From assembly GCA_964396145.1 (NCBI GenBank), contig CAYNEE010000002.1:1-59943 (forward strand): DNA of 59,943 nucleotides, written 5' to 3'. The notes below the pieces were generated by a model. That model did no database searches. It saw only the letters and a list, made by a program, of their open reading frames with translations, and was not told where the DNA came from. The stretch comes from an uncultured Gammaproteobacteria bacterium (lineage in GTDB: Bacteria > Patescibacteriota > Microgenomatia > UBA12405). The position numbers were made by a program, and so were the translations under genes. Positions within the stretch are counted from its first letter, which is position 1. Each line of letters starts with the position of its first letter. Below, piece by piece: positions 1-54,324 of the stretch.

Positions 1-1380
1 TGAAGAATCATAGAAACTACCGCTGATGGGAACATTACAGTCCCAGACTTTAAGTAGACGATTAGCAGGTAACCAACCAGTACTAAGTGAACCCTTAACG
101 CTGGTGATATTAACTTGATGATCAAAAGCAGAAGTGACATTTTTAGTAGCATCAAAATCTATAGACAAAGAATAAACATCCCGATCGTTTGGGAGTTCTC
201 CATTAGCGGCATTACCGTCATGATATTGGGTAATCCTGGACATATTTCTAATCACGTTATCTCCCAACCATCTCATTTTAACTGAAGCAATATCCTGCCA
301 ACCATTACTGGTAGTCACCCAAACGACATAAATTAACCTCCTGGGGCTAGAATTATTAGCAATAAAAGGATCACAGGTATGAATCCGGTTTTGAGCATCC
401 ATAATGTCCAAACCCTGAGTCGAGGTTCTGTCTGTGTACCACCAATCGCTTCTTCTGATTTCTAAACTATTGAAAGTTGGTGTGACACAAGTTAATTTTC
501 CGGTACAACTGTCGCCACAGCTACCGGTACAAGTTTGAGGAGAGCATAAATTATTGGCACAACTACAATCATTTAATTTAGTTCCCATGCAAAAACAGCC
601 GGGAACAGTCTGACAACTTTTGTTGTAGCATGTGTTAGTAGTACAGGCCTGACCAACACAAGAAGGACACTGAGTTGGTGTTGGGCCTCCACCGGGAGGT
701 ACTCCACCGCACCAACCACAATCAGGACCACCACAGTTATCACAATTACCAGTACCGTCAGAACAGCCATAAAAACCATGCTCCGCACAAACAGGGTTGG
801 GGACATTGTAACAAGTCACGGGGTGACAGCTTTGCCCTGGTCCAGGGCAATACTTTGTTCCTACCCACTGATCTGTCATGGTTGCTCCACATTGATATAA
901 AGTACAATCCTTACTAACATAACATCTAATATCTGCATATCCTGGAGTATTCAGACAAGTATTAATACAATAACCACCACCTTGACGGCAATCACATGGT
1001 TCAATACAAGTTCCACCCCAACATTTATTGGGGCTACAACAAGGTGATCCACTATTACAAGATTGGCCTAAGCTACGGCAAGAAGGTGTTGGTTGTGGTT
1101 TACAAGTTCCATCAGAACAACCGTAAGGGCAACTTTTTTCAAATACCCACCTCACTCCATTACAATAATACTGACCTCCATCTATACAAGACCTCGTTCC
1201 TTTGGTACAAGATGCCGATTTTTGACAAATACTATTACTATCACAATTACCGCTACAACACATCCAGTTACCATCACACCAAGATCCTTCTGGAGAACAT
1301 TGAGCTAAAACCGGATGCTCGTACAAACTGAACACAGATAAAATAAAAAATAAAAATAGTAATATCTTCTTTCTAATCAT
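1..1380 (-). CDS. Secreted cysteine-rich protein, partial (C-terminus lies beyond the left window edge). It has a signal peptide followed by repeated C-x6-C-x5/6-CC-x3/4-C-x4/5-C modules.
   Basis: Absent from the ORF track because no stop falls inside the window. The reverse complement of 1380..1 is one uninterrupted frame of 460 codons starting at ATG 1378-1380: MIRKKILLFLFFILSVFSLYEHPVLAQCSPEGSWCDGNWMCCSGNCDSNSIC... An ATGA stop/start overlap links it to the upstream ORF 1377..1862. The listed ORFs between 573 and 1331 are off-frame artefacts of this gene. Confidence 0.8.
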   Translation of the reverse strand, partial: MIRKKILLFLFFILSVFSLYEHPVLAQCSPEGSWCDGNWMCCSGNCDSNSICQKSASCTKGTRSCIDGGQYYCNGVRWVFEKSCPYGCSDGTCKPQPTPSCRSLGQSCNSGSPCCSPNKCWGGTCIEPCDCRQGGGYCINTCLNTPGYADIRCYVSKDCTLYQCGATMTDQWVGTKYCPGPGQSCHPVTCYNVPNPVCAEHGFYGCSDGTGNCDNCGGPDCGWCGGVPPGGGPTPTQCPSCVGQACTTNTCYNKSCQTVPGCFCMGTKLNDCSCANNLCSPQTCTGSCGDSCTGKLTCVTPTFNSLEIRRSDWWYTDRTSTQGLDIMDAQNRIHTCDPFIANNSSPRRLIYVVWVTTSNGWQDIASVKMRWLGDNVIRNMSRITQYHDGNAANGELPNDRDVYSLSIDFDATKNVTSAFDHQVNITSVKGSLSTGWLPANRLLKVWDCNVPISGSFYDSS

Positions 1381-1862
1381 TCTCTTCCAAAACTACACAT
1401 CCTGTAACCAATATTCATAATCATGATAACACTACCAGATTCATCCGTACTAATATTAACTTCGTCACCTTGACAGAAAGCCCATTCCCAATCAATGCCT
1501 TTATTGTTGGTTACTGCTATAAATTGTCCCTTTTTACCTCTACCCACTACTGGAACAAGAAGTTTCATACTTTCAGGATTAATTTTAATAGTCTTTTGAT
1601 TGTTTTGATCATCTTTTACTATTAATTCTGCGTTACCAGAATCCCAATTTACCACTTCAAAAGTTTCTTGTTTCTTTTGAACATACTTATTTTCGCCTAC
1701 TTCTATTATCGAAACTGGAGAGCTTTTAGAATCAACTAAGGTTTTGTCTGTTTTATGGGATTTTTCTTTATCAAAAAATTTTACAAAAGCTAATAGGGCT
1801 AATCCAATGATAATTATTAAAATTATAAAAATCCTTATTCTGAAGAATTTAAAGCCATTCAT
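1377..1862 (-). CDS. Hypothetical bitopic membrane protein
   Basis: 161-aa ORF with an N-terminal hydrophobic helix (FRIRIFIILIIIIGLALLAFV). It is translationally coupled to the downstream Cys-rich gene and lies on the same strand as the pilus operon. Confidence 0.5.
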   Translation of the reverse strand: MNGFKFFRIRIFIILIIIIGLALLAFVKFFDKEKSHKTDKTLVDSKSSPVSIIEVGENKYVQKKQETFEVVNWDSGNAELIVKDDQNNQKTIKINPESMKLLVPVVGRGKKGQFIAVTNNKGIDWEWAFCQGDEVNISTDESGSVIMIMNIGYRMCSFGRE

Positions 1863-2015: not shown

Positions 2016-3347
2016 TTATTTTTTTTCTCTAAATCCAATCATTATTAGATTTGTTCTAGAAAAAAGATCATAGTCACTTTTTGTCGGCAATTCATTGTCA
2101 CGCCAAATCCTAATAACTGCAGCATCCCACTCCGAATCAGTTACTTCTGGTACAAATTCATCAATAAAAATATCTAGATTTTCTTTCTTAATTTGTTCTC
2201 TATAAGCATATTTTACGTAAAGCTCCATTTGTGTTACTCCACTAGGGGTGGTATATCTACCTGATGTATCAAAATATCTTGAATCTTCTGGAGTATAAGT
2301 CAAAGTAATAGGAACCAAACCTCCTGTTGAGGGAACCCTATACAAAAATGTTTTATTTAATATCTCCTGATGCTGCCAAATAAATTTATAAGCAGAAATA
2401 GGTACCCAAACCGATGATCCAAAAATAAAATTACCAGTTTCACCGGCAATTCCAAACGGTTCGTTTATGGCTTTATCTCTATACTCCTCTGCCTTTTCAT
2501 TCACTAACTTCAAATATTCATCCTGCCAGAGAGCAAATTTTTCAGGTTCGTCAATCGGAGAAGGAGCGACTACTAGGTCTTTAAACTCTTCTTTAGATTG
2601 TGGATCTTGAAAAATATTACCTTTAATCAATGATTCTTTTTCCCACTGAGCTTTAACAAGTCTTTCAACAATCTCACCCTGGGAGTTAATTCGAACTGGA
2701 ACACCTTGGTCAACTGAGAGAAAAGTACCATCTTTATTGGGGTTAATTTCCAGTGGCCCTAAACCAGGTTGGATATCATTGCCAGCCACAGTCGGAGGGT
2801 AGTCGACAAAACCTGTTTCATTCATGGGAACAGTAAAGAGCTTGTTTTGATATTCACCACCGACTTCCATTAATACCCAAACTTCGGTCGGGTTTTTAGG
2901 ATTGTCATAAATATATTTCCAATGAATATCTGTGGTTTCTGGAGCAAAGGGACGATTGTCAAACTGAATCCAATAATCAAGCCAGCGCTCTACTCTTTGT
3001 TGTTGTGCTAAGGCATCGGTGGACTGATTTAGTTTTTCCTGAGTCGAGGTATAAACACCGCCGGAGGCCTCAACTACATAAGTAGGGGTAGGAGCCAGAG
3101 TTTCAGTTGCTTTGACAATTACAGTTGGTACTTCAGTTGGATTAGGGGTAGAAGAGATGGTTGGTTCTTTAATAGGGGCAGTGGCTGGAGGAGTTTTGTC
3201 AGAGACTATTGGCGGGATTACCGGTCTCGCGTCTACTGGGGTACAGGCAACAGTCCCACCGACTATAGCAGCGACTAAAGTCTTATTGATAACTTTTTTA
3301 AGGTTAAAAGAACTTTTTTTAAATTCACCACTCTGTTCAGGCATCAT
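2016..3347 (-). CDS. Hypothetical surface protein or putative lipoprotein with a Pro/Thr-rich linker
   Basis: 443-aa ORF. It has an N-terminal hydrophobic segment ending in GGTVAC (weak lipobox) followed by a P/T-rich stretch. I recognise no family. Confidence 0.55.
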   Translation of the reverse strand: MMPEQSGEFKKSSFNLKKVINKTLVAAIVGGTVACTPVDARPVIPPIVSDKTPPATAPIKEPTISSTPNPTEVPTVIVKATETLAPTPTYVVEASGGVYTSTQEKLNQSTDALAQQQRVERWLDYWIQFDNRPFAPETTDIHWKYIYDNPKNPTEVWVLMEVGGEYQNKLFTVPMNETGFVDYPPTVAGNDIQPGLGPLEINPNKDGTFLSVDQGVPVRINSQGEIVERLVKAQWEKESLIKGNIFQDPQSKEEFKDLVVAPSPIDEPEKFALWQDEYLKLVNEKAEEYRDKAINEPFGIAGETGNFIFGSSVWVPISAYKFIWQHQEILNKTFLYRVPSTGGLVPITLTYTPEDSRYFDTSGRYTTPSGVTQMELYVKYAYREQIKKENLDIFIDEFVPEVTDSEWDAAVIRIWRDNELPTKSDYDLFSRTNLIMIGFREKK

Positions 3348-3383: not shown

Positions 3384-3881
3384 TCACAATCTGGGAGAAA
3401 TGGTCTGAAAAAACCTCCCACTGCTGCCTACACCCTCAGTCCCAATAACTGTTTTTAAATCTAAAATTACATCTACAGCCTCAACTATACTACTACCCAC
3501 CTTCATCCGACAAGTCACAAAACTATTGCAATTATTGGGTAAAACTCCACTATCAAGTAAATTATAAGTTCCGTTGGCTGACTGTGAGGCAATTTTATTG
3601 CCCGCTAAATCACACAGTAAAGTTGTCGACACTCCATTGTAGGCCACGTAACTCAATTGTGTTTTACCACTACTACAAACCATAGTTTCCGGCCTAGCCT
3701 CTAAAATATTTTTTTTAAGCTCTCCAAAAACAAAATTAGCCTTACTGGTTAATTTTTCATTGTTTTCTGTAGAATTTTTAAGTCGAAAAGACATCCCCAG
3801 TGACCCAGATAAGGTAGTCATAATCAATCCTAAAATTGCCACCATCACTACAATTTCAATTAAAGTAAAGGCACGTCTCAT
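3384..3881 (-). CDS. Prepilin-type N-terminal cleavage/methylation domain protein (minor pilin or pseudopilin)
   Basis: The N-terminus MRRAFTLIEIVVMVAILGLI matches the class III signal pattern: a basic leader, F+1, E+5 and a hydrophobic helix. A 4-nt overlap joins it to the upstream gene. Confidence 0.75.
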   Translation of the reverse strand: MRRAFTLIEIVVMVAILGLIMTTLSGSLGMSFRLKNSTENNEKLTSKANFVFGELKKNILEARPETMVCSSGKTQLSYVAYNGVSTTLLCDLAGNKIASQSANGTYNLLDSGVLPNNCNSFVTCRMKVGSSIVEAVDVILDLKTVIGTEGVGSSGRFFQTISPRL

Positions 3882-4291
3882 TTCCGACTAAAAAAACGTC
3901 TAACCGTTAAACTCTGAGGGTTTTTCCCCGGCCAGTCCACTTTAACCATCAGTTCTGTACACTGCCTGGGCGTCCCTGTTCCACAATTCGGATAAGTCGC
4001 CGACTGAGTTATTGTGTCAAAATCTACGGTATAAACATATCCCGGAAAAGACGAATTACTTAGACCTGTCTGTGCCGACTCCTGATAATTCCAAAACAAG
4101 ATTGGATTATTCTGACTCCTGTCTACAAAATCTTCAACCACTTTATTGGCCAGTTCATTGGCCTTTCTTCTGTCAAAACTTGTTTGCCGGTTAGCAGTTG
4201 ACATCACAATCAAAGCCACTGCCGCCGTCATCACCAACGCCAAAATTCCTATGGCTACCACTGATTCAATTAAAGCCTGCGCTTGTTTCAT
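3878..4291 (-). CDS. Divergent prepilin-like protein (minor pilin candidate)
   Basis: The N-terminus MKQAQALIESVVAIGILALVMTAAV keeps E+5 and the hydrophobic helix, but the cleavage motif is degenerate. It sits inside the pilin gene array. Confidence 0.55.
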   Translation of the reverse strand: MKQAQALIESVVAIGILALVMTAAVALIVMSTANRQTSFDRRKANELANKVVEDFVDRSQNNPILFWNYQESAQTGLSNSSFPGYVYTVDFDTITQSATYPNCGTGTPRQCTELMVKVDWPGKNPQSLTVRRFFSRK

Positions 4292-4794
4292 TAATTTTCA
4301 ATCACCTCACCCTGGGTAACTTGTCCCATGGCATCAATAAAAATAGGTATCGACATATTTTTGCTTTCATTCAAAGTCATATTTATTGTTGTTGTTTCTC
4401 CGGCTGCATACATAGTATCGGTAGTATTTTTCCCTAAAAATCCAGTTCCAGCATAAAAAAACCTCCTGGTATTATCAGTTACATTTGCTTCTACTAAATT
4501 CTGAGAAAAATTAACTGTTGTCCCTATTGTAGAAATTGCGTTTAAATACAATTTCTTATCAGTACCATTAAAATAAATTTCTATAACTTTCAAATTTCCA
4601 CTAGCTCCCAAAGGCATTTGCCTGGTTTTAGCAAGCGAATTAGCCATTTTAAAATCAGAAACTACCTGGCTAGACGCTTTAAGCAAAGCCTGCCTTTGGA
4701 TTCCCCGATTAATATACACAAAAGCACCTGCCGACAACACCAACACAATCGCAACTGCGACTAATAACTCTACTAATGAAAACGCTTTCTTCAC
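4291..4794 (-). CDS. Prepilin-type N-terminal cleavage/methylation domain protein (minor pilin)
   Basis: N-terminus MKKAFSLVELLVAVAIVLVL. TAATG stop/start overlap with the next gene. Confidence 0.75.
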   Translation of the reverse strand: MKKAFSLVELLVAVAIVLVLSAGAFVYINRGIQRQALLKASSQVVSDFKMANSLAKTRQMPLGASGNLKVIEIYFNGTDKKLYLNAISTIGTTVNFSQNLVEANVTDNTRRFFYAGTGFLGKNTTDTMYAAGETTTINMTLNESKNMSIPIFIDAMGQVTQGEVIEN

Positions 4795-4812: not shown

Positions 4813-5208
4813 TTAAGGGTTCTTTAGGATATAAGTCGTCAATGTAGAATCAATTGGATTATTTTTTGCGTCTTCTAAAACCGCCGACAATTCATAACCA
4901 TAGCCATTATTCGTTGATACATAACCATAAGTATCACCTGCAGCCTGGCCTTTTGGTCCATATAGTCTGTCAGGCAAATAATCTGGCACCAAAGTGGAGA
5001 AAAAGGCGCCAGTTGCTGGATATTTTTTAGTTGCACTTGCTTGTCGATATATTTCTGCCGCCGCTGCCATTTTTTGTAAATCCTGAATTCTCCTGGTGTC
5101 CCTCGCTTTAGTATTCATTTTTGAAAAACTGACCATCCCCACCACACTCAAAACCGCAATAATGGTAATGACCACTATCAGTTCAATTAAAGTAAAAGCT
5201 TTTTTCAT
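4813..5208 (-). CDS. Type IV pilin or GspG-like pseudopilin paralog
   Basis: N-terminus MKKAFTLIELIVVITIIAVLSVVG followed by DTRRIQDLQKMAAAAEIY, which is a typical pilin alpha-1 helix. Confidence 0.8.
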   Translation of the reverse strand: MKKAFTLIELIVVITIIAVLSVVGMVSFSKMNTKARDTRRIQDLQKMAAAAEIYRQASATKKYPATGAFFSTLVPDYLPDRLYGPKGQAAGDTYGYVSTNNGYGYELSAVLEDAKNNPIDSTLTTYILKNP

Positions 5209-5612
5209 TGTTGGTTTTTAACACAATAATATGGTCCGCTTGCTGCCATCGTACAGGCATTATTAGTAGCATTGCCTCCTGTCGGATTTTCCAAAACAGC
5301 ACAAACACAGTATGTACTAGCTCCATTGACCAAACCGGAAAAATTATAAACCGTCGGACTGGAATTTTTAGGATCAACCGGCATAACCGACATTAAACCC
5401 GAACTAGCAAGTTGAGCAGTGTTTGGATAGACATAACTATTCTGACTGTAATACATTTCTGCTGCTTTTTGAATTGCATTCATATCCTGAACTCTTCTGG
5501 CATCCCGAGATTTTTTTTGAGCTCCACCATACGAGATTGAGGCCACTGCAATTAAAATCCCAATAATTGAAATTACTACTAATAATTCAAATAAAGTAAA
5601 AGCTTTTTTCAT
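5205..5612 (-). CDS. Type IV pilin or GspG-like pseudopilin paralog
   Basis: N-terminus MKKAFTLFELLVVISIIGILIAVAS, then SRDARRVQDMNAIQKAAEMYY, with C-terminal Cys residues. Confidence 0.8.
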   Translation of the reverse strand: MKKAFTLFELLVVISIIGILIAVASISYGGAQKKSRDARRVQDMNAIQKAAEMYYSQNSYVYPNTAQLASSGLMSVMPVDPKNSSPTVYNFSGLVNGASTYCVCAVLENPTGGNATNNACTMAASGPYYCVKNQQ

Positions 5613-5654: not shown

Positions 5655-6047
5655 TTAGCTCGCACATACATAATATTTTTTATCAGCGTTATCAGTTACT
5701 CCGCATTTTGCCTGACTCTCCCTCAATTCTTCACCTTTAGTAGCTTCCATCTCCGCACCCAATCTAAACGAGTCACTATTTATTAAAGTGTAAGTATAGG
5801 GACTATAATCCACAATCGAAGGAATATAACTTCTAATATCCGACGACCAAGTCGCACTGTCAGGATATTTTTGATTATCATTGTAATATGTTCGCAGAGC
5901 ATTTTTAATAGATGCCATGTTTTGTTTCTTTTGACTATCACTCGCTCTTTCCCTGGCTCCCATAAAATTAGGCATTATTATAGCCGTCAATACCCCGATA
6001 ATGGAAATTACTACTAAAAGTTCTATTAGCGTAAATGCTTTTTTCAT
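5655..6047 (-). CDS. Type IV pilin or GspG-like pseudopilin paralog
   Basis: N-terminus MKKAFTLIELLVVISIIGVLTAIIMPNF, with a C-terminal Cys pair. Confidence 0.8.
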   Translation of the reverse strand: MKKAFTLIELLVVISIIGVLTAIIMPNFMGARERASDSQKKQNMASIKNALRTYYNDNQKYPDSATWSSDIRSYIPSIVDYSPYTYTLINSDSFRLGAEMEATKGEELRESQAKCGVTDNADKKYYVCAS

Positions 6048-6068: not shown

Positions 6069-6884
6069 TTAACATTGCCATTGACCCGATACTGGATCAT
6101 AACAAGGATCACCTGTCGGTATTGCCCCCTGGCAAAATCCTCTAAGGCAAAAACCATCACAACATGGCGTACCTCTCACACTACATGAACTACCCGCGGG
6201 CAAACAACTTGGCGGAGTAGTTGGCTCCGGAGAAACAATCGGTGGAGCAGTTGGTATCCGAGTTGCGGTCGGTGGAGCAGTTGGTATCCGAGTTGCGGTC
6301 GGTGGAGCAGTTGGTACAGGAGTCGATGTTAAAACAACTCCAGAGGTCGGAATCACTACTCCTCCAGTACTACTTAAATTCCCATTCACATCCACTGCTA
6401 TGTTAGGACTTAAGTATACAAAACAATAATTATCATCTATTCCGCCGCAATCATAGGTCATACTTTTATTAGTATCAAGTTGACATTGCTTGTCTTCTTT
6501 ATTTTCCAATTTAGCAAACAAAGCATAACTTTTACCATCAGCACTACTTTTATAGCAATACTGAGGAAAACCCTTCACATTTTCCTTGGGCATTTTTTTC
6601 ATATAAATATAGCCTTCATCTACAAACTCATCACCCCAGTTAACAGTTTTAGTATTAGTTCCACTCCCAATAACTATCCGACCGTCACTACTGGCTGTTG
6701 GAAATTTTTTATAGTCGGCATAATACATCTGTAAAGCCTTGGATACCGCATTTAAATCACCTTTACGGGCCACGTCATTGGCCTTTCTTTTGGCTGTCTG
6801 AAACTGACCGATGGCTATTGTCGTCAATATTCCCATAATTGCAATTACTACCAGTAGTTCTACTAAAGTAAAGGCTTTTCTCAT
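6069..6884 (-). CDS. Modular type IV pilin: pilin domain, Pro/Thr tandem-repeat linker and a C-terminal cysteine-knot-like module
   Basis: The start is taken at the internal ATG giving MRKAFTLVELLVVIAIMGIL; the track ORF begins 5 codons earlier at a GTG. The C-terminal part reads PTAPPTATRI x2 ... CLPAGSSCSVRGTPCCDGFCLRGFC. Confidence 0.8.
   Translation of the reverse strand: MRKAFTLVELLVVIAIMGILTTIAIGQFQTAKRKANDVARKGDLNAVSKALQMYYADYKKFPTASSDGRIVIGSGTNTKTVNWGDEFVDEGYIYMKKMPKENVKGFPQYCYKSSADGKSYALFAKLENKEDKQCQLDTNKSMTYDCGGIDDNYCFVYLSPNIAVDVNGNLSSTGGVVIPTSGVVLTSTPVPTAPPTATRIPTAPPTATRIPTAPPIVSPEPTTPPSCLPAGSSCSVRGTPCCDGFCLRGFCQGAIPTGDPCYDPVSGQWQC
6211..6317. repeat. 30-bp tandem repeat (about 2.5 perfect units plus one degenerate unit) encoding the PTAPPTATRI linker of the modular pilin
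   Basis: ggtggagcagttggtatccgagttgcggtc occurs identically at 6241-6270 and 6271-6300. A partial unit follows at 6301-6317 and a degenerate unit lies at 6211-6232. Confidence 0.9.
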
Positions 6885-6901: not shown

Positions 6902-7447
6902 CTAAATTCCCTGGGTTCTAATATCAGTAAGCATCGGAGTACTAGTCGCATCAGCATATGCGGTAGGTTTGATGTTGGGATAATTAGAGCTAGAAACCGA
7001 ATAATTAGCTACTTCTGTAAACCCCTCATCAATCGGTCCTTGATTATAAAGATTAGGATCACTTTTATTTTCCAAATTTGCCATTATTTTAAATAGTTTA
7101 GGACAAGGCTCAGTCTCATCATTGCTACCCACAATTATTGGATAGGGCTTACCGTCCGGGTCGCAGGGCCACTTGTTCATCCATGGTTTGAAAAAGTCAC
7201 CGTTACAATAGGCTGGATCAAACATTTTATGTAAATACTGGTTGTAATCCGGATAACAGCCTTTGTCGTTGTAATAATCCTCAAAAGCAATTTTTATCCT
7301 TTCCAAATCGGCCTTCCTTTTAGCGTCCTGCGACCGATTAACCATCGCCGCCGGCTTAAAAATACCCAAAGCTATAACCATTAAAATCATTAAAATAGCC
7401 ATTACAATAATTACCTCCACCAAGCTTATCGCTTTCTTTTGTTTCAT
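6902..7447 (-). CDS. Prepilin-like protein (minor pilin candidate)
   Basis: The N-terminus MKQKKAISLVEVIIVMAILMILMV has E+5 and a hydrophobic helix. The C-terminal domain contains Cys residues. Confidence 0.65.
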   Translation of the reverse strand: MKQKKAISLVEVIIVMAILMILMVIALGIFKPAAMVNRSQDAKRKADLERIKIAFEDYYNDKGCYPDYNQYLHKMFDPAYCNGDFFKPWMNKWPCDPDGKPYPIIVGSNDETEPCPKLFKIMANLENKSDPNLYNQGPIDEGFTEVANYSVSSSNYPNIKPTAYADATSTPMLTDIRTQGI

Positions 7448-7466: not shown

Positions 7467-8234
7467 TCAAAAAAATAAATTAATAATTTTTTCTCCCCAA
7501 AAATAGGCGATAATTGTCCCTAAAATTAAAAAAGGGCCAAATGGAATAGGGGAGAGCCGGCCCATTTTTTTTCTTGACATCAATATCAACCCTATAATCG
7601 AACCACTAATAAATGCTATATAAAAAGCCACTATAATTTTTGGAAAACCTAAAAATAAACCCATAAACAGCGCCAGCAAAACATCCCCCTCACCCATGGC
7701 CTGTTGGCCTTTAATTTTAATTTTCGTCAAAAGCCAGATAAAAAACCCGGCACCCAGAGCACTCCACCACTCAGTCATCGGCAATCCCAACATTCTTCGT
7801 CTCAGTTCCGCCAAGATTATTAACGGAACCGCCGTCGCATCCGGAATCATCATATACCCAATGTCAAAAGCCGCCTCAAACACCAGCAAACTCCAAATGA
7901 TTAACAATACTACTAATAATATGCCCCCTCTTTGGAAATTGAAATTTGTTTGGTTATTGTAGATTTGGTTATTAGTTATTGCAAACAATATCCCCGTCAC
8001 CACCTCCACCATTGGATAATAACTTGGCAATTTTTTCCCACAACATCGGCTTTTGCCTTTATATACTATAAATGAGAGTAGGGGAATATTGTCATAAAAT
8101 TTCAGGGGTTTTTGACAAAAATCACAATAGCTCCGTTGCTCTTTTACAATTGATTTTTTATGTCCCAGCCGCCACAGCACCATGTTAATAAAACTCCCCA
8201 CACACAAACCCAAAATAAATAAGACTAAAGTCAT
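7467..8234 (-). CDS. pilD: Prepilin peptidase / N-methyltransferase (A24 family)
   Basis: 255-aa polytopic protein. It has an N-terminal Cys-rich motif (CDFCQKPL...DNIPLLSF...CCGKKL) and a Gly-rich C-terminal half typical of PilD/GspO. It lies within the pilin array. Confidence 0.85.
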   Translation of the reverse strand: MTLVLFILGLCVGSFINMVLWRLGHKKSIVKEQRSYCDFCQKPLKFYDNIPLLSFIVYKGKSRCCGKKLPSYYPMVEVVTGILFAITNNQIYNNQTNFNFQRGGILLVVLLIIWSLLVFEAAFDIGYMMIPDATAVPLIILAELRRRMLGLPMTEWWSALGAGFFIWLLTKIKIKGQQAMGEGDVLLALFMGLFLGFPKIIVAFYIAFISGSIIGLILMSRKKMGRLSPIPFGPFLILGTIIAYFWGEKIINLFF

Positions 8235-8307: not shown

Positions 8308-8928
8308 TTACTCCGGTACACACATCATGTTAGCCACAGTAGCACTAGGTGCTAAAGTCGCATCCACCCAGGTAGTCGGCAAGACACAGGTAGCACTCTG
8401 AGGTGAAATCGTCATAGCTCCAGTATCCAAACACTTCAACTTACCTCCTTGTTCACCGGTCCTGTTAGCCTTGGCTTTAGGAAAGAAACAGACATAATTG
8501 GTGTCCGTTCCATCGGTATAAGCGTAAAACATATCAACTGGCTTGGCGTTATCCTTAAAAGGAGCCTTGTTCAGAAAAGAGGTCTTAATTTCAGAAGTCT
8601 GAACTAAAGGAGAATCCGTAGTTCCGACATGGTTTACAAAAGCTGTCCCCACCACTCCAAACATGGGTACATTTCCTCGCATCACCTGAGCTGTTCCCGC
8701 TGGAATAGTCGTCCCCGAACCTGAATTCCAGGCATAGGCGTTTTGAGAAGCAAAGTAACGTTCATGAGCACTTAAAACTTCAGCCGCATCATTTTTAAAT
8801 TGGGAATCGCGGGCTTTATTGGTCTGTTCAATAGGATTTAAAGTTGCCAAAACTGCGACCGACAATATGGCAATTAAGGTGATAACTATCAATAGTTCCA
8901 CCAATGTAAAAGCTTTTCGCATTATCAT
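8308..8928 (-). CDS. Type IV pilin, probable major subunit
   Basis: N-terminus M(IM)RKAFTLVELLIVITLIAILSVAVLATLNPIEQ. It is the first pilin gene after pilC, is followed by its own terminator, and has a C-terminal Cys pair. Confidence 0.8.
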   Translation of the reverse strand: MIMRKAFTLVELLIVITLIAILSVAVLATLNPIEQTNKARDSQFKNDAAEVLSAHERYFASQNAYAWNSGSGTTIPAGTAQVMRGNVPMFGVVGTAFVNHVGTTDSPLVQTSEIKTSFLNKAPFKDNAKPVDMFYAYTDGTDTNYVCFFPKAKANRTGEQGGKLKCLDTGAMTISPQSATCVLPTTWVDATLAPSATVANMMCVPE

Positions 8929-8970: not shown

Positions 8971-10185
8971 TTAAACGGAAGATGTCAAGGTATAGATAGG
9001 CATAATCACCGCCACCACCAAAAACCCGACCCCGATACCTAAAACTACCATGATAAGAGGCTCTATCGCTGCCGTCAGAGCCTTGACCGCTTCCTCAGCC
9101 TCTTTAGTAAAATAATCGGAAACCTTCATCAACACCTCATCCAATTTTCCCGTCGCCTCACCAGTGGAAATCATTTGATTAACAATTGGAGGGAAAATAC
9201 CTGTATTTTCAAAAGAAACTGCTACCGAAAAACCTTTTTGTACCTTTTCGGCAATTTCCAGAAAAGCTTTTTTATAAACCTCATTACCGGACACCGTTGC
9301 CACAATTTTTAAAGCCTCAACTAAAGTAATTCCGGCTGTCAACAACATGGATAAAGTCCGGGTAGTATTGGCCAAAACTGATTTTTCATTTAACACCCCC
9401 ATAATTGGAATTTTTAGTAATAATTTATCTCGGCGCAAATGAAATGCCTGACTATTCATGCCGACCCTATAAGCCATAAACAATCCCACGCCTATTAACG
9501 GAAACATAAACCATAATTTAGCCACAAAACTGGACACATTCATCAGAGCTTGGGTAATCTTTGGCATCTGGGCTGTCCCAAAATCAGCATACATGGCCGT
9601 CATTTTAGGGATTACAAAAATCATCATCACAAAAGCCACAATAATCATGGCCACAATCACGATAACCGGATAAATCATGGCTCCCTTGACCTTGCCTTGA
9701 AACTCACTTTGCCCCTCCATGGTGTCGGCTAATTTATTCATTACTTCATCCAAAACTCCCGCCTCCTCTCCAGCCGAAACAGAGGCAATATAAGCCTCTC
9801 CAAAAACTTTTTTAGAAGCCGAAAGTGATTTTCCTAGAGGCATCCCTCCTCGAACCTCATCCAAAGTCTTTGCCACAATTTGCCCCAAACCACTACCCTC
9901 ATCATATTGGTTTTTTAACAAGGCTAGAGCATCGGTCAGAGCCAACCCAGCTGTCAACATTGTTGATAATTGCCTGGTAAAAGTACTGACTTGTTTCAGA
10001 TTTGCTCTCCCTTTAAAGCTTCGGGTCAATTCAGAAAACATACCTCCTGATTTTGCCTCCACCGATAGGGGAATTAAACCGCTATCCTTAATCGAATCCA
10101 CCACCTCTTTTTTACTGGCCAAATCCAATTCTCCCTTAATTAGTTTTCCACTCCAATCCCTGGCTTTATAAGCAAACTTAGCCAT
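8971..10185 (-). CDS. pilC: Type IV pilus platform protein (GspF/PilC family)
   Basis: 404 aa with two repeats of the T2SS-F domain and three hydrophobic blocks. It overlaps the pilT stop. Confidence 0.9.
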   Translation of the reverse strand: MAKFAYKARDWSGKLIKGELDLASKKEVVDSIKDSGLIPLSVEAKSGGMFSELTRSFKGRANLKQVSTFTRQLSTMLTAGLALTDALALLKNQYDEGSGLGQIVAKTLDEVRGGMPLGKSLSASKKVFGEAYIASVSAGEEAGVLDEVMNKLADTMEGQSEFQGKVKGAMIYPVIVIVAMIIVAFVMMIFVIPKMTAMYADFGTAQMPKITQALMNVSSFVAKLWFMFPLIGVGLFMAYRVGMNSQAFHLRRDKLLLKIPIMGVLNEKSVLANTTRTLSMLLTAGITLVEALKIVATVSGNEVYKKAFLEIAEKVQKGFSVAVSFENTGIFPPIVNQMISTGEATGKLDEVLMKVSDYFTKEAEEAVKALTAAIEPLIMVVLGIGVGFLVVAVIMPIYTLTSSV

Positions 10186-11242
10186 TCTTCTTTAACAGTC
10201 TTAAACTATTAAGAAATTCTTCCGGTTTTAAAGCAAAGCTTGAGGCTAAATGCTCTTCAACCATCCCGCTTTTTACCAACCGGGCTAGTGACATTTCCAA
10301 TCCCACCATACCCTGATCTGCTCCGGTCTGAATAATATTGTCAATCATAAAAGTTTTCCCTTCCCTAATAGTATTGGCTAGAGCCGGATTGGCCATCAAT
10401 ATTTCCGTCGCTACTGCCCGTCGACCATCAATGGTCGGAATTAATCGTTGCGACACCACTGCTGACAACACTGAAGCAAGCTGCATTCTGATCTGGGGCT
10501 TACTACCCTCGGAAAAGACATCAATAATTCTGTCAATTGATTGGGCAGCCGAATTAGTATGTAGAGTCGAAAAAACCAAGTGTCCTGTTTCTGCTACCGT
10601 CAAGGCCAATTGTATAGTTTCCAAATCTCTCATTTCTCCCACAAAAACCACATTTGGATCCTGACGCAACGAAGATTTCAAGGCTCTACCAAAACTGAGA
10701 GTATCCTCTCCCAATTCTCTTTGGGCAATTAGCGACTTTATTGGTCTAATAATATACTCAATCGGATCCTCAATTGTCACAATATTTACCGATTTTTCCT
10801 TGTTAATTTCATTTAGAATCGAGGCTACCGTGGTTGATTTTCCCTGTCCTGTTGGCCCAGTCACCAGCACAAAACCCTGCCTTAATTTAGTAAAAGTTCT
10901 TACCACTTCCGGTAAGCCTAAACTTCCCAGTTCCGGAATTTGGTCAACAATTACCCTCAGAGCACAGGCAAGCTGTCCCTTTTGATTAAAAATATTAACC
11001 CTAAAACGGTATTCTTCCAAAGTTACCGATAAATCCATTTCTTTTTCCACCACAAACCTTTCTTTTTGTTTTTCATTTAACAAAGACAAAATCAATTCCG
11101 GATCATCAATCGATCCAAAAGTACCGATATCAATCAGTGAACCCTGGACTCTCATTTTAGGCACCTGTCCAATCTGTAAATGTATATCCGAAGCGCCATT
11201 TGCAATCGCTAGTTTACAAATCTCTTCTGTTTTTGAATGCAT
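10178..11242 (-). CDS. pilT: Type IV pilus retraction ATPase
   Basis: 354 aa with Walker A GPTGQGKST, the ASDIHL motif and the GHLVFSTLHTN His box. It has no GspE N-terminal domain, which is typical of PilT. Confidence 0.9.
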   Translation of the reverse strand: MHSKTEEICKLAIANGASDIHLQIGQVPKMRVQGSLIDIGTFGSIDDPELILSLLNEKQKERFVVEKEMDLSVTLEEYRFRVNIFNQKGQLACALRVIVDQIPELGSLGLPEVVRTFTKLRQGFVLVTGPTGQGKSTTVASILNEINKEKSVNIVTIEDPIEYIIRPIKSLIAQRELGEDTLSFGRALKSSLRQDPNVVFVGEMRDLETIQLALTVAETGHLVFSTLHTNSAAQSIDRIIDVFSEGSKPQIRMQLASVLSAVVSQRLIPTIDGRRAVATEILMANPALANTIREGKTFMIDNIIQTGADQGMVGLEMSLARLVKSGMVEEHLASSFALKPEEFLNSLRLLKKNG

Positions 11243-11244
11243 TT

Positions 11245-12984
11245 TTAATATTGTGCCACCCGCAAAACTTCGTCTGCAGTGGTAATTCCTTCTAAAACTT
11301 TAACGTAACCATCTTGTTTCATAGTCAACATGCCCTCCTCAACCGCTTGTTTTTGAATCGCCGAGGCCGCCGCATGTTCCACTATTAGTTTACTGATTTT
11401 TTCGCTTATCGGCATGACTTCATAAATAGCAATTCTTCCCATATATCCGGTATTATTACATTTAGTACAGCCCACTGCCTTGGGTATACGCAAAGTTTTA
11501 CCTTCTTTTTTAGCCTTTTCTTCCAACATCCCATATATCGGTCCCAAAGTTTCTTTAAACTCGGTCAAAGTCGCCGGATCAATTTCTACAAATTGCCTAC
11601 ATTCTGGGCAAAGTCTTCTTAAAACCCGCTGGGCTACCACACAAGTTAGTGCTGAAATCAACAAAAACGGCTCCACTCCCATATCTATCATCCGGGGTGG
11701 CGCTCCCGAAGCATCATTAGTATGCAGAGTTGAAAAGACCAAATGTCCAGTCAAAGAAGCGTTAATAGCCAGTTCTGCCGTTTCCGTATCCCGGATTTCC
11801 CCGACCATCATAATATTTGGATCCTGACGTAAAAAAGATCTTAAGGCTGAGGCAAAAGTCAATCCCGCCTGAACGTTTACCTGGACCTGATTAACTCCTT
11901 TCATCTGATACTCAACCGGGTCTTCAATGGTAACTACATTTACCTTTGGAGTCGCCACCTTATCCAAAATTGAATAAAGGGTGGTAGTTTTACCAGAACC
12001 TGTCGGACCGCAGACAATAATAATCCCGTGAGGTCTTTCAATCGCTTCAATTAAATTTTTCAATGCAAGACCCCTTAAACCCAAATCCGGCAAAGAGGGG
12101 ACTTTGGTCGATTTTCTTAGCAAACGCATTACTACCTTTTCTCCGTATGATACCGGCAAAGTCGAGATACGCAAATCAACTTCATTGCCGTCTACGTTAA
12201 TGTTAAAACGTCCATCCTGAGGGATTCTTTTTTCATCAATTTTTAAGTTAGCCAAAATCTTAATCCGGGAAACTACTGCCTCCAACACGTTTCGAGGCAG
12301 TACATATTTTTCCTGTAAAATACCGTCAATCCTATAACGGACCCTCACATTCTCCTCAAGCGGTTCTATATGGACATCAGAAGCCCGGGAGCGGACCGCG
12401 TATTCCAAAATAGTATTAACAATTTTGGCAATCGGTGCCTCTGTTGTTACCGCCTTGTCTGTTTCTGCCTGAATCTTGGCCTCATCAGCCTTTCTCTCAT
12501 CCAAAGCTTTACTCACCTCCGAAGTAATTCCCTTTTCCCTTTCATATTTTTCCTGGATAAAAGCGTCAATTTTAGACTCCAAAGCCATTGCCGCCTTGAT
12601 CCTCAGACCGGTCTTTTTTTCCAAAAACTCAATTGTTTCCAAGTCCAAGGGGTTGGCCATCGCCACTTCCAAAATTTTATTTTTGGGATCCATCCGATAG
12701 GGGACCAGGTGGTACTTTTCAGCTACACTCTGAGCCACCAACGACAACGCCTCTGGAGAAAAGCCGATTTCATCTAAATCTACAAAAGGAATTTTTAAAA
12801 ATTCCGCCTTGTATTTCAAAAAATCTTCTTCTGGAAACAACCTCATCGAACGGATAATCGACTCTTCGTTCTCGCCACTTTTAACCATCTTCAAGCTAAT
12901 TTCCTCAGCCTGAGATTCGTTGATTACCCCCTTATCTAAAAGAAGTTCGCTTAATTTTTTATAGTTTTTTAATTCGGCAGGCAT
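11245..12984 (-). CDS. pilB: Type IV pilus assembly ATPase (GspE/PilB family)
   Basis: 579 aa with a GspE-N domain, Walker A GPTGSGKTT, the GHLVFSTLHTN motif and a tetracysteine motif (CPECRQ...CTKCNNTGY). Confidence 0.9.
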   Translation of the reverse strand: MPAELKNYKKLSELLLDKGVINESQAEEISLKMVKSGENEESIIRSMRLFPEEDFLKYKAEFLKIPFVDLDEIGFSPEALSLVAQSVAEKYHLVPYRMDPKNKILEVAMANPLDLETIEFLEKKTGLRIKAAMALESKIDAFIQEKYEREKGITSEVSKALDERKADEAKIQAETDKAVTTEAPIAKIVNTILEYAVRSRASDVHIEPLEENVRVRYRIDGILQEKYVLPRNVLEAVVSRIKILANLKIDEKRIPQDGRFNINVDGNEVDLRISTLPVSYGEKVVMRLLRKSTKVPSLPDLGLRGLALKNLIEAIERPHGIIIVCGPTGSGKTTTLYSILDKVATPKVNVVTIEDPVEYQMKGVNQVQVNVQAGLTFASALRSFLRQDPNIMMVGEIRDTETAELAINASLTGHLVFSTLHTNDASGAPPRMIDMGVEPFLLISALTCVVAQRVLRRLCPECRQFVEIDPATLTEFKETLGPIYGMLEEKAKKEGKTLRIPKAVGCTKCNNTGYMGRIAIYEVMPISEKISKLIVEHAAASAIQKQAVEEGMLTMKQDGYVKVLEGITTADEVLRVAQY

Positions 12985-14265: not shown

Positions 14266-15396
14266 ATGTTTTCTCCGATATTTACCATTAATAACCAGAT
14301 TTTAAAAAACATCGGTACTCTTGAGGCTGCCAAGGCTGTCATTGATGAGGCACCTCTGATTCCTGCTTACGAAAAACAGTTTCAGCAAGAAGCTGTCATC
14401 CGCACCGTCCATTATGGTACCCGGATTGAAGGTAACGATCTCACTTATCAGGATGTGGCAAAGCTTGTCGAAGGCCGTGAAGTTACTGCTGCCGACCGGG
14501 ATATTCAGGAAGTTATCAATTACAGAAACGTCATTAACTACCTTGAGGAAATTTGGGCCACCTATGACGCCGGATTACCGTTACCAGAAGAAAAATACAA
14601 AGAGGGTATTGACCCTAAAAACAGGCTATTTTTTTACAGTGAAACCATTATCAAAAAGATTCACGAGTTGACCACTGTCAAAATTATCGACGAAGCCGAC
14701 GTCGGTAAATACCGCCGCCAACAGGTCGTTTTAAAAAATACTAAAACCGGCGAAATTGCTCATCGACCCCCTCCGGCTATCGAAGTACCCTATTTGATTA
14801 CCGACTTTGTCGCCTGGTTAAACGACTCCAAATCCAGAGAAATTCATCCGGCTATTAGAGCCGCCATTACTCAATATGTTTTAGTCGCCATCCACCCTTT
14901 TGTTGAAGGAAATGGCCGTGTTTCCCGGGCTTTTGGAATATTACCTCTCTATGTCGAGGGTTATGACATCCGCCGTCTTTTTTCCATTGAAGAATATTTT
15001 GATAGAAACGCCGAAACTTATTACAATACCCTCCAGTCCACCCACGAAAAAAATAGTGACATTTTTGAACGTGACCTGACCGACTGGGTGACCTATTACA
15101 CGGAAGTCTTGGCCATCGAGCTTTCTCGGGTCAAAGACAAAGTCCAGACTCTCTCCCGGGACCTAAAATTCAAACAAAAACTTGGCGGCAAGCAAGTTCA
15201 TTTAACCGAAAGACAAATAAAATTAGTCGAATACATGCAGCAATTTGGCGGCTTACGCATGCCCGATGCCAAATCTCTTTTACCTATGGTTAGTGACGAC
15301 ACCATCTGGCGTGACCTCAAAAAACTTATTGACGATAAGGTCGTCCAAAAACGCGGCTCCACCAAGGGTGCTTATTACTGTCTTAGCAATGTTTAA
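14266..15396 (+). CDS. Fic family protein (AMPylase-type), with a Fic_N-like motif and a C-terminal wHTH-like region
   Basis: The Fic motif HPFVEGNGRVSRA is present (HxFx[D/E]GNGRxxR). An upstream TRIEGN segment resembles the inhibitory motif. A TATAAT box lies at 14249-14254. Confidence 0.9.
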   Translation: MFSPIFTINNQILKNIGTLEAAKAVIDEAPLIPAYEKQFQQEAVIRTVHYGTRIEGNDLTYQDVAKLVEGREVTAADRDIQEVINYRNVINYLEEIWATYDAGLPLPEEKYKEGIDPKNRLFFYSETIIKKIHELTTVKIIDEADVGKYRRQQVVLKNTKTGEIAHRPPPAIEVPYLITDFVAWLNDSKSREIHPAIRAAITQYVLVAIHPFVEGNGRVSRAFGILPLYVEGYDIRRLFSIEEYFDRNAETYYNTLQSTHEKNSDIFERDLTDWVTYYTEVLAIELSRVKDKVQTLSRDLKFKQKLGGKQVHLTERQIKLVEYMQQFGGLRMPDAKSLLPMVSDDTIWRDLKKLIDDKVVQKRGSTKGAYYCLSNV

Positions 15397-31010: not shown

Positions 31011-31658
31011 AGTTAATCGTAGCACAGAAAGTTCATAAACGTTCGTTTACGGGCCTCTGGTGAGGTCATCTATAAATTATGCCTATTTATAGGTATAATT
31101 TTAAGAATAACAAAAAATTAGATAAAAAATAGGCTGGGGGAGTAGGCTTAGCTTTTTAAAGCTGGCCCTTGTCCGGGTAGCCAGTCTTAATAGGCGAGTA
31201 AAAAAGACATTTATTTAAAACCCGTTTTAATAAAAACTAAAAATAAATGATTAATAATTGAAAATTGAAAATTGTAGATCCAGCCACTCCCCTCCACTTC
31301 TCTTTTGAATAACGTCGTAAAAGATACATTGTGCGACATATTAAAATTGACTTCCCCTCTATAGGGGACAACTATCTTTTTCTTTGTCCTATTCTAGTTT
31401 CTGGTTTCTTGTTTTTAATTTTCTATTTATACTTTTATGCCCCTCCTCCCAGGCACTTCTCACCGGCAAAAGTGATCTATTGCTGCTAATCCAAGTTTTC
31501 CACACAGACTATATCATACTATATCACTACCCTATCCTATAATAATCATGAAAATTATAGGATATATCGTGAAAATCCTTCCCCCACTTCCCTACTCGGC
31601 TCGACGTAACCTTTTTTTTGCGAAGTCAACCTTAAAAACTGTTTTTATTCTACTTTCA

Positions 31659-51762: not shown

Positions 51763-51766
51763 AAAT

Positions 51767-52933: not shown

Positions 52934-52937
52934 TATC

Positions 52938-54254
52938 TTATTTAAACATAGTAATATAATTATTTTTCCAAATTTCATAGTCGGCCATAGTGACCAATCC
53001 GTCACAATTGAAATCAGCTTTCCAGTTGTTCCTGGTACTGGGATCAGTACCACACTTGGCTACATTAAACTCATCTCTCCAAATGGAATAATCCATCAAA
53101 TCAACCGAACCACTACAGTTAGCATCACCCTTACCCTTAGCCGTAGCATCAGAACACTGAGTACATTTAGAAGTCGCTGTACACTTAGTTAAATCTGTAG
53201 TCCAATTTCCTCCAACAGCCGGACAGCAATAATCTCTGCCTCCGCAAGCCATTTTCATACCTGCCGCAGTACATAAAGTATCCTGAGGTGTTCCGTCGGA
53301 ATCGGGAGGAGTACAATTTCTAAGCTTGTTACCATTATTTGGATCAGGACAGGCTTGAGCCCCAGGACATTTATCAGATACCGGAGGCTTAGATGGAGGT
53401 TGAGTCACCACAATCGGCGGATTTGCCGGTTTACAGATTCCGCTTGAACAATTTTTACTATTACATTGAGTATTGTTAGTACACTTACAATTATCCGGTC
53501 TATTGGTCAATAAACTACAGTTCTCTATACATTGAGGGTAAGCCAAACCCTCATCGGTACAAGTCAAACCAGAACAGCAAGACCGAGTCGAACAAGGCTT
53601 ACCACTACCAGCACAAACCACCGGTGTCGGTGTCGGAATAGGGATATAAGTTGGAATTTCAGTTCTAGGCACACACCGAGGATACGATAAACCCTCATCA
53701 GTACATACATCAGTCGACAAACAACACGATCTAGTGGAACATGCCTGACCAGATTTCGCACAAGGAATCGGAGTCGGAGTTGCTGGCCGAGGAGTATTGG
53801 TTGGTACAGCCGTTGGCCTTATTCCGCACCTATTATCACCACAATAGCCGCTAGCACACAAACTGTGTCCATTACAGTAACAACCATTAGGTCTACCGGT
53901 CGCCCTGCCACAAGGATCAACAGGTAAATTAGCACAAACACCATCTCCGCAATACCCGCTACAACAATTAGAATTGTTACTACACCCAGAACCATTATTC
54001 CTACACCGAGGAGTGGTTGGAATACTTGTAGGAACTCTGGTAGGTGCTACTCCTCCACATCTTCCTCCATTACATATTCCCGAACAACACTCACCATTAT
54101 ATCTACAAGAATGATTCGCTGGACCACATCCACCAGCCGCCTGATTTCTACTATCCTGATTCTCTTGAACTAATTTCGTGGCTACTGGAATCGCAATAGC
54201 CATTACCAACAAACCTAAAATCAAGGGAATTTGAGCTAAACCTTTTCTTTTCAT
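52938..54254 (-). CDS. Membrane-anchored protein with multiple cysteine-knot-like modules separated by PT linkers and a C-terminal two-repeat dockerin-like module
   Basis: The start is taken at MKRKGLAQIPLILGLLVMAIAI. Modules include CGPANHSCRYNGECCSGICNGGRC and CRNNGSGCSNNSNCCSGYCGDGVC. The C-terminus has DANCSGSVDLMD and DFNCDGLVTMAD. Confidence 0.65.
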   Translation of the reverse strand: MKRKGLAQIPLILGLLVMAIAIPVATKLVQENQDSRNQAAGGCGPANHSCRYNGECCSGICNGGRCGGVAPTRVPTSIPTTPRCRNNGSGCSNNSNCCSGYCGDGVCANLPVDPCGRATGRPNGCYCNGHSLCASGYCGDNRCGIRPTAVPTNTPRPATPTPIPCAKSGQACSTRSCCLSTDVCTDEGLSYPRCVPRTEIPTYIPIPTPTPVVCAGSGKPCSTRSCCSGLTCTDEGLAYPQCIENCSLLTNRPDNCKCTNNTQCNSKNCSSGICKPANPPIVVTQPPSKPPVSDKCPGAQACPDPNNGNKLRNCTPPDSDGTPQDTLCTAAGMKMACGGRDYCCPAVGGNWTTDLTKCTATSKCTQCSDATAKGKGDANCSGSVDLMDYSIWRDEFNVAKCGTDPSTRNNWKADFNCDGLVTMADYEIWKNNYITMFK

Positions 54255-54324
54255 TGTTCTAATTTCAACTATTTCTGCTTTCAGTTTTACATGTTTACCA
54301 TACCAGGTCAATAGATCAAATTCA

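Follow-up and report, generated by a model that had tools for sequence, protein, structure and literature searches.

Modular pilins, in which a pilin carries a further module, are an established class of more than 1,200 proteins with 264 architectures, including examples from the candidate phyla radiation (CPR) (Raynaud et al. 2021, PMC8179133). In Streptococcus sanguinis, PilB combines a pilin with a vWA module and PilC combines a pilin with a lectin (PMC8179133; Shahin et al. 2023, PMC9934059). Type IV pili are the one structure that was shown experimentally to matter for the hold of CPR bacteria on their hosts, and only in Saccharibacteria (PMC9894109, PMC11623550). There, the minor pilin PilX2 of Nanosynbacter lyticus TM7x, which bears an accessory domain at its C-terminus, is needed for efficient host binding (PMC11623550). 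Bacterial knottins are known as sequences but have no experimental structure (KNOTTIN database paper, PMC5753296). Here, we describe a prepilin gene on contig CAYNEE010000002.1 (59,943 bp; the whole of this stretch is called the window) that encodes one chimeric protein, composed of a pilin, a Pro/Thr stalk and an independent cystine-knot-like module. The gene came from an uncultured Shapirobacteria-like CPR bacterium, and the source names of its close homologues were Candidatus Shapirobacteria and Woesebacteria, both Microgenomates within the CPR. We consider it fairly probable that the gene encodes a modular type IV pilin whose knottin-like effector would most likely be an adhesin or ligand binder on the pilus.

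The gene and its parts, all on the reverse strand, were delimited as follows.

6069..6884: modular prepilin gene, 271 codons (271 aa), uninterrupted, with the ATG at 6884 and the stop codon at 6069-6071
6873..6884: leader peptide MRKA, with Ala at −1 and F+1 and E+5 in the mature protein; class III signal peptide
6369..6872: pilin module, residues 5 to about 172, with a long N-terminal helix (7-58), a beta-sheet head and four conserved Cys
6207..6368: Pro/Thr-rich linker, residues ~173-226, about 54 aa, predicted to be disordered
6239..6316: perfect in-frame tandem repeat in the linker, 78 bp, 2.6 units of 30 bp
6132..6206: knottin-like module C227-C251, C-x6-C-x6-CC-x3-C-x4-C, 25 residues, CLPAGSSCSVRGTPCCDGFCLRGFC
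6072..6131: C-terminal tail QGAIPTGDPCYDPVSGQWQC, 20 residues, with an extra Cys pair formed by C261 and C271 (the last residue)

The open reading frame (ORF) begins MRKAFTLVELLVV and remained open from the pilin part through to the Cys-rich end, which confirmed the single gene of pilin, stalk and Cys module that a first-pass annotation had proposed. Starting instead at an in-frame GTG at 6899 would lengthen the leader by five residues, to MLYLIMRKA. The window prepilin already had an identical entry in a public collection of proteins (P0001, NCBI). It bears a class III prepilin signal at its N-terminus, with MRKA followed by FTLVELLVVIAIMGILTTIAI; at this site the orthologues carry KAFTL or KGFTL. 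The N-terminus scored above the cut-offs of both Pfam N_methyl (28.3 bits; cut-off 21.2) and NCBIfam IV_pilin_GFxxxE (TIGR02532; 29.2 bits; cut-off 16.3).

The pilin module resembled GspG, and the view that the N-terminal part is an ordinary GspG/PilA-like pilin held. NCBIfam GspG (TIGR01710) covered residues 4-124 (E = 2e-13), with 50.5 bits against an equivalog cut-off of 88.85, and Pfam T2SSG reached 20.2 bits, just below its cut-off of 21. By threshold, the protein is a member of neither family. A profile of the pilin alignment matched the alpha-1 helix of solved pilins, namely Geobacter PilA, Thermus PilA4 and GspG. In the same alignment (A1), C110 and C146 were invariant and C134 and C154 nearly so. 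The AlphaFold2 model of the full-length protein, built on a 106-sequence alignment, had a predicted local distance difference test (pLDDT) score of 88-98 at residues 11-170. It showed the lollipop fold predicted for a pilin, with a long helix (residues 7-58) on a beta-sheet head of about ten strands. Foldseek searches with this model gave weak matches only (best E = 0.13), in which pilins came first (4d40, 7t31) and the double-knot toxin DkTx was 31st.

The six Cys of the terminal module (C227, C234, C241, C242, C246 and C251) form the C-C-CC-C-C framework of knottins. By comparison, their spacing of 6-6-0-3-4 is identical to that of the published omega-conotoxin MVIIA sequence. Among the six-frame ORFs with a length of 60 aa or more, the framework pattern was found five times, always in the coding frame and only in three window genes, and gave no match in any of 100 shuffles of the window. 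In an alignment of 17 modules from the window and relatives, five Cys columns were invariant, and the sixth Cys, which no module lacked, was shifted only in two divergent modules of a dockerin protein. When a profile of these 17 modules was compared with PDB chain sequences, all 37 matches were inhibitor-cystine-knot peptides. The best were wrightide R1 (4.2e-6) and omega-atracotoxin Hv1a (1.5e-5), and asteropsins, double-knot toxin, conotoxins and a squash-type trypsin inhibitor were also matched. With the window module by itself, the matches were of the same type, at E-values of about 0.05.

Structure prediction agreed with the profile. In the full-length model, a second folded unit was placed at residues 221-250 (pLDDT 71-88). 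The last 48 residues were also modelled separately, and knottin toxins made up the great majority of the 26 Foldseek matches of that model. The top match was delta-conotoxin TxVIA, with a root-mean-square deviation (rmsd) of 1.4 Å over 26 columns and a target-normalised template modelling (TM) score of 0.73. Covalitoxin-I, huwentoxin-X and omega-conotoxin MVIIA were among the others (rmsd 1.4-1.9 Å, target-normalised TM 0.6-0.73). From sequence and model together, the terminal module is very probably a knottin-type mini-domain. Its disulfides would join Cys I-IV, II-V and III-VI, with the third threading the ring made by the first two; the superposition on knottin toxins speaks for this indirectly. 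Some of the evidence weighs against the assignment. The Foldseek E-values of the 48-residue model were all above 0.5, as is expected at such short length, its pLDDT was a moderate 73.6, the disulfide connectivity was illegible in the models, and on a single knot Pfam Conotoxin_I2 and Conotoxin stayed under their cut-offs (E = 0.01-0.03). Apart from the Cys and one Gly, the similarity to knottin toxins was weak, so that convergence is possible as well as descent.

The C261-C271 pair in the tail probably closes a small beta-hairpin, as suggested by short strands at residues 39-40 and 45-46 of the 48-residue model (pLDDT 61-68). Among the knot-bearing pilins, this 20-residue tail was found in the window protein alone.

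Two other identities for the terminal module were rejected. A pilin D-region disulfide loop was ruled out, in agreement with the first-pass annotation, which had named such a loop as what would overturn its reading. The pilin module has four conserved Cys of its own, the unextended orthologues end at about residue 172, some 55 residues before the knot, and the knot was predicted as a separate fold after a low-confidence linker of about 50 residues. A carbohydrate-binding module of the CBM1 or hevein (CBM18) type was likewise dismissed, with no CBM in the Pfam output for the whole protein (E<=0.1) or for the isolated module (E<=1). The CBM1 framework has four Cys, and that of hevein has eight Cys with a CCSxxGxCG motif; both are unlike the framework found here.

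Might the chimera have arisen in the data, from two adjacent genes fused by an assembly or frameshift error, or from a D-region loop mistaken for a module? A member of the P0002 cluster, P0123, was frameshifted within its first knot, so errors or pseudogenes do occur in this region. The window ORF is open throughout, and the fusion was seen again in three lineages or more and in numerous independent assemblies. The assemblies with knot-bearing orthologues came independently from ENA, JGI, NCBI and Logan, so that an assembly chimera is excluded. Together with the Cys and folding evidence given above, this makes an artefact extremely improbable.

A whole-protein search with the window prepilin returned 282 relatives. 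Most were 160-175 aa long and ended near the start of the window linker (query coverage 59-63%), and most orthologues lacked the linker. The pilin module was strongly conserved across Shapirobacteria and Woesebacteria, with 50-69% identity over more than 100 cluster representatives. Knots were present in P0002 (four), in P0003, P0004 and P0005 (two each) and in P0026, P0034 and P0128 (one each), while P0006-8, P0042, P0049 and P0060 had a Pro/Thr tail without Cys. The pilin of this family can carry 0, 1, 2, 3 or 4 knots, with one to four in a small Shapirobacteria clade. The same operon slot, flanked by the pilin downstream of PilD and the next small pilin, was filled by P0002 in loci L001-L003, by P0128 in L084 and L085, and by the plain 170-aa pilin P0023 in L086; the loci checked also kept the flanking Fic and DNA polymerase III delta' genes. 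The shared slot indicates that the window protein is an orthologue of an ordinary conserved pilin that acquired a C-terminal extension. In a neighbour-joining tree constructed with the pilin module only, the window protein was placed with P0002-P0005, P0026 and P0034 formed a separate nearby branch, and the pilins with a Pro/Thr tail only fell in two other clades. This placement of the extended forms indicates that the C-terminal extension arose several times in the pilin family.

The knots diverged much faster than the pilin that carries them. Between P0003 and P0004, the pilin module was 97% identical and the last knot 72%; between the window protein and P0002, the values were 73% and 40%. 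The knots in the window shared just 44-62% nucleotide identity, and a recent intragenomic copy of a knot into the pilin was rejected on these grounds.

The linker had low confidence in the full-length model (pLDDT 46-58 over residues 171-220), and about half of residues 169-225 were Pro or Thr. The first-pass annotation had described a perfect 30-bp repeat encoding PTAPPTATRI twice. The repeat was as described, and its position needed correction from 6241-6300: the periodicity extends over 6239-6316, the two full units occupy 6255-6314, and the degenerate units PTAPPIVSPE and PTTPPSCLPA come after them. The same source had expected the stalk to vary in length by slippage. Near-identical family members did differ in length, and no second allele of the window gene was found in any collection searched, including an exact-sequence contig look-up for the window protein. 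A metagenome scan gave no match to the exact 30-bp repeat unit and, with patterns of the tail peptide, no relative among the 600 pattern matches listed. Within one cluster (at least 90% identity), P0121 had three knots where P0002 has four, with precisely one 34-residue knot lost. P0034 and P0026, also near-identical, differed by 14 linker residues, the linker of P0034 being the shorter. These differences indicate that recombination between repeats changes length in this pilin family.

Linker length and composition varied freely among relatives. This would fit an extension without a specific ligand, in which the Pro/Thr tract, possibly O-glycosylated, and a protease-resistant knot serve as a spacer, shield or stabiliser; we judge this improbable. 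On this reading, the extension might mask the pilus from phages or proteases, change surface properties or cross-link fibres through disulfides. Pro/Thr-only tails arose independently in two other clades (P0006-8; P0042, P0049, P0060), where the tether alone was retained, the knot loops are poorly conserved, and O-glycosylation of CPR pilins has been discussed (PMC11623550). However, the six-Cys framework was strictly kept while the loops changed and was multiplied up to four times, which fits a binding scaffold better than a passive cap, and the same genome uses the module on a separate dockerin display protein.

The C-C-CC-C-C module was indeed common to two non-pilin surface proteins of the window, as the first-pass annotation had noted, and occurred twice in each.

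1..1392, reverse strand: secreted Cys-rich protein that runs off the window start, with a signal peptide and knot frameworks at 1225-1299 and 994-1080
52941..54311, reverse strand: dockerin protein, membrane-anchored or secreted, with knots at 54057-54128 and 53934-54005, Pro/Thr linkers, further Cys-rich modules and a C-terminal dockerin

The protein at 1..1392 contained many further Cys-rich segments, lies at the downstream end of the pilus cluster and had no Pfam or NCBIfam match. Near the knot-dockerin gene, a 220-aa protein (50561-51223) gave weak matches to a cohesin (E = 0.0085) and to an LPXTG anchor (E = 8e-5). The cluster further comprises an unannotated 428-aa ORF (51767-53053) and, at 49893-50564, another dockerin protein, this one with an fn3 / purple-acid-phosphatase-N domain. 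A GH39-like glycosidase (54359-55690, forward strand) lies beside the reverse-strand cluster at 49893-54311 and is divergent from it. From its domain matches, this cluster is a possible cohesin-dockerin surface display cassette; if so, the knots would be displayed by two routes, the pilus and a scaffold.

The module was also widespread outside the window. A word-indexed protein search, queried with the 17-module alignment and with the 140-aa four-knot tail of P0002, had no matches and appeared to be blind to short Cys-rich modules, as the source proteins themselves were not returned. When 1.84 billion representative proteins were scanned by HMMER with a profile of the module (E <= 1e-3), 333 representatives were matched, nearly all of them multi-copy. 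The highest number, about 28, was found in a 1,960-aa Myxococcota hypothetical protein. The N-termini looked like lipoprotein, Tat or Sec signals and all proteins were annotated as hypothetical; a few were eukaryotic, e.g. a mosquito protein. Pfam domains were determined for 135 of the 333: Conotoxin_I2 was matched in 53, Dickkopf_N in 20, Toxin_12 in 15, Toxin_19 in 11, Conotoxin in 8 and Omega-toxin in 5. Other domains were rare (CBM96 in three proteins, Peptidase_M23 in one, dockerin in one). The M23 peptidase was joined to seven knots in one protein, P0143. A modular pilin is defined by a pilin module joined to a further module that is not peculiar to pili; the window prepilin fits this definition, as its knot also occurs in two non-pilin window proteins and in the 333 representatives.

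Among the 150 listed of the 333 profile matches, the only pilins were P0004 and P0034, both from the family of the window pilin, and no prepilin motif was found in the others. A set of 162 pilin-like ORFs from 86 loci had knots only in the orthologous Shapirobacteria genes. The matches listed from a scan of species-representative genomes with the pilin alignment (at least 600, on generic pilin N-termini) were mostly Planctomycetota and Verrucomicrobiota pilins instead of the Shapirobacteria orthologues, and were used only as a negative sample. A search for fusions of a prepilin with the knottin pattern had been recommended at the outset: they recurred in Shapirobacteria orthologues and nowhere else within the data searched. 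The fusion therefore appears confined to one small clade, within what was searchable.

The nature of these relatives raises a different role, in which the pilus would deliver a warhead to the host envelope or hold it there; the knot would serve as toxin, channel blocker or enzyme/protease inhibitor, as knottins do in venoms and plants. All relatives of known function are ion-channel toxins, an alpha-amylase inhibitor (wrightide R1) or a trypsin inhibitor. The window knot can be read as cationic and hydrophobic (2 Arg, 2 Phe and 2 Leu), the tandem knots of its relatives recall the bivalent double-knot toxin DkTx, and P0143 couples knots to a peptidase. Yet the likeness consists of the Cys framework and one Gly, and functional residues are not shared. 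To our knowledge, the voltage-gated nerve and muscle channels that animal toxins target are not found in bacteria. The module is covalently tethered with no evident cleavage site, and most bacterial carriers are knot-only repeat proteins without an effector-delivery context. We therefore regard a warhead as quite unlikely. A broader conjecture, that the knots are hypervariable and copy-number-variable host-recognition or attack warheads of CPR bacteria, comparable to venom knottins, on both a retractile pilus and a cohesin-dockerin scaffold, we hold to be similarly doubtful. If it were true, the loops and the copy number would set which host cell the epibiont grabs or disables. This would be a first biological role for bacterial knottins and a host-range determinant in Microgenomates.

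The reading we favour is that of an adhesive or ligand-binding effector on a modular pilin. PilD would remove the leader, and the hydrophobic helix would carry the subunit into a filament built by PilB and PilC. The disordered Pro/Thr tether of about 54 residues would hold the 25-residue knot and the small disulfide-closed hairpin off the filament. The tether would measure roughly 15 nm when fully extended, as estimated from the residue count. As a stable scaffold with fast-evolving loops, the knot would bind a ligand on another cell or surface, and PilT would retract the filament and pull on it. The about 54 residues without predicted structure after the head domain imply that the knot would sit on a flexible tether outside the fibre. 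Processing, filament assembly, outward projection and the adhesive role are what we infer for this pilin. A role of the knot as effector is suggested by the fixed Cys framework with fast-changing loops, by the difference in copy number between close strains, by a dockerin protein of this genome that also displays the module, and by the characterised precedents (PilB and PilC of S. sanguinis, PilX2 of TM7x), in which grafted modules act as adhesins.

Several observations count against an effector. No ligand, binding surface or conserved functional residue other than Cys was found in the module, in which only the Cys and one Gly are conserved. The fast divergence of the loops could reflect relaxed constraint instead of selection for binding. 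Moreover, the sister clades with a Pro/Thr tail and no knot mean that the tether may have a role of its own.

The window prepilin was encoded with PilD, the PilB and PilT ATPases and the PilC platform, as expected for a type IV pilin, and this synteny was kept in L001-L003 and L084-L086. The operon and its signals, all on the reverse strand, comprised the following.

11245-12984: PilB (MshEN + T2SSE), type IV pilus operon
10178-11242: PilT-like ATPase, type IV pilus operon
8971-10185: PilC (T2SSF), type IV pilus operon
8988-8959: promoter-like TTGACA-18-CACAAT, TG-extended, directly upstream of the 206-aa pilin
8308-8928: 206-aa pilin, candidate major pilin
8283-8258: terminator-like hairpin, 11-bp stem with 6 GC, directly downstream of the 206-aa pilin; the strongest in the 13.7-kb region
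7467-8234: prepilin peptidase PilD (A24_N_bact + Peptidase_A24 in Pfam)
6902-7447: 181-aa GspG-like pilin, the sole gene between PilD and the window prepilin
5655-6047, 5205-5612, 4813-5208, 4291-4794, 3878-4291 and 3384-3881: further genes for pilins or pilin-like proteins (six), downstream in this operon

The window prepilin gene, downstream of PilD, was spaced 17 and 21 bp from its neighbours. The promoter-terminator pair around the 206-aa pilin was kept almost base for base around its orthologue in L001 (5906-6633); in L086, just the promoter-like site was seen by the orthologue. The 206-aa pilin is probably the operon's major pilin gene, with read-through feeding PilD and the other pilins. 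The window pilin may then be a low-abundance (minor) subunit, an assignment we favour by a small amount. This lean rests on the 206-aa pilin having its own promoter-like site and the strongest hairpin, on the tight packing of the window gene after PilD, and on the prior that characterised modular pilins are minor subunits. It is contradicted by the best families of the window pilin module, which are major subunits (GspG, 2e-13; ComGC; Myxococcus PilA), and by the 206-aa pilin matching pilin families only over its N-terminal helix.

If the window protein were instead the bulk pilin, or one of two major pilins, every subunit would bear a tether and knot, and the fibre would resemble a bottle-brush of knottins along its whole length, unlike a filament decorated at its tip. 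We think this unlikely, though it has more on its side than the roles discussed so far as minor possibilities. The GspG-like match covers most of the globular part, the next-best families are also major pilins, all profile matches of solved structure are major pilins or pseudopilins, and the module is as strongly conserved as given above. The gene is also paired with the 181-aa GspG-like pilin directly after PilD, a pair that presumably recalls the paired major pilins PilE1 and PilE2 of the S. sanguinis pil locus. A long flexible linker would let a subunit in the body of the fibre carry a module, a point made in PMC8179133. Against this, the dedicated promoter-like site and strong terminator belong to the 206-aa pilin and were kept in a second lineage. 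Modular pilins characterised so far are minor subunits, and similarity in the N-terminal helix cannot tell major from minor pilins. The extension of the four-knot relative P0002 is 157 aa, about the size of the pilin module, and would in our judgement be difficult to accommodate on every subunit.

The distal end of the pilus cluster was not conserved, as its gene content past the pilins differed between the window and L001. In L001 (11678-14809), a PilX_N-like pilin, PilM and two small proteins followed the pilin genes. In the window, this end held a 443-aa Pro/Thr-rich protein with a lipoprotein-like N-terminus (2016-3347, reverse strand) and a 161-aa membrane-anchored protein (1377-1862, reverse strand), neither with a Pfam match. 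A Fic-domain protein (14266-15396, forward strand) stood beside the pilus operon, and its position was kept in all related loci. Elsewhere in the window, we observed a weak match to a HEPN / RNase LS-like toxin (22867-23367, forward strand) and a tyrosine recombinase of the Phage_integrase family (30054-31025, reverse strand). A 327-aa thioredoxin-like protein (23598-24581, forward strand) matched VSR_TRX (5.5e-9), GILT (9e-6), Thioredoxin_4 and, weakly, DSBA. Judged from these matches, it may be an extracytoplasmic thiol-disulfide oxidoreductase, an enzyme that would be needed where so many disulfide-rich proteins are exported.

Little is known of the ways in which ultrasmall CPR/Patescibacteria recognise their hosts and keep hold of them, and the locus offers a small, easily synthesised candidate recognition module from a CPR lineage that is uncultivated and distinct from Saccharibacteria. 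The natural variants with 0-4 knots and with a Pro/Thr tail only, all on one conserved pilin, are a ready-made comparative experiment. The locus extends the list of modular pilins by a module that domain databases miss, and points to a large uncharacterised population of tandem-knot secreted bacterial proteins. Pilus-tethered, disulfide-stabilised mini-binders may also interest protein engineers.

The claim in the first-pass annotation that pilins of this architecture are undescribed was overstated, since modular pilins are established (PMC8179133) and PilX2 is known in the CPR (PMC11623550). The knottin graft itself was not found described, and neither were a 0-4 copy series on one conserved pilin or a function for bacterial knottin-like repeats. 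On knottins in CPR or other bacteria and on Cys-rich Patescibacteria pilins, we found nothing specific in the literature beyond the remark in PMC5753296. The module has no InterPro or Pfam signature above threshold, so a domain-based survey like that of Raynaud et al. would miss it.

Compared with known systems, GspG/PulG, the major pseudopilin of the type II secretion system, is the best-scoring named family for the pilin module (TIGR01710, T2SSG). The window protein scores below the cut-offs of this family, and the operon around it resembles those of type IV pili in its second, PilT-type ATPase and its many pilin genes; GspG/PulG itself lacks a C-terminal extension, unlike the window pilin. 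The likeness to fungal CBM1 and to hevein/CBM18 proteins is limited to the layout of a Pro/Thr linker and a mini-domain. Knottins such as MVIIA, TxVIA, Hv1a, wrightide R1 and DkTx have the C-C-CC-C-C framework in common with the window module, and the tandem copies parallel DkTx. However, animal and plant knottins are free secreted peptides of 25-40 residues, cut from precursors, that act on channels or enzymes, whereas the window knot is tethered to a filament subunit. The uncharacterised bacterial multi-knot secreted proteins, two of which are in the window, share the module profile.

The TM7x pilins PilX1 and PilX2 resemble the window protein as CPR pilins with extra C-terminal domains that are proposed tip adhesins, and PilX2, by its part in host binding, is an experimental precedent for the mechanism within the same superphylum. 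They differ in carrying a beta-jelly-roll and a seven-bladed beta-propeller, in their non-canonical signal peptides and in belonging to another phylum, and no sequence relationship between them and the window protein was detected. PilB and PilC of S. sanguinis carry bulky vWA and lectin modules, whereas the window pilin carries a knottin-like domain of about 25 residues that is present in 1-4 copies among relatives. Their linker is a short loop, in contrast to the disordered Pro/Thr tract of about 54 aa in the window pilin. Like the window pilin, PilB and PilC consist of a class III pilin module, a linker and a C-terminal module that also occurs outside pilus biology, are encoded in a pilus operon, and have the proposed role of presenting a ligand-binding module on the filament.

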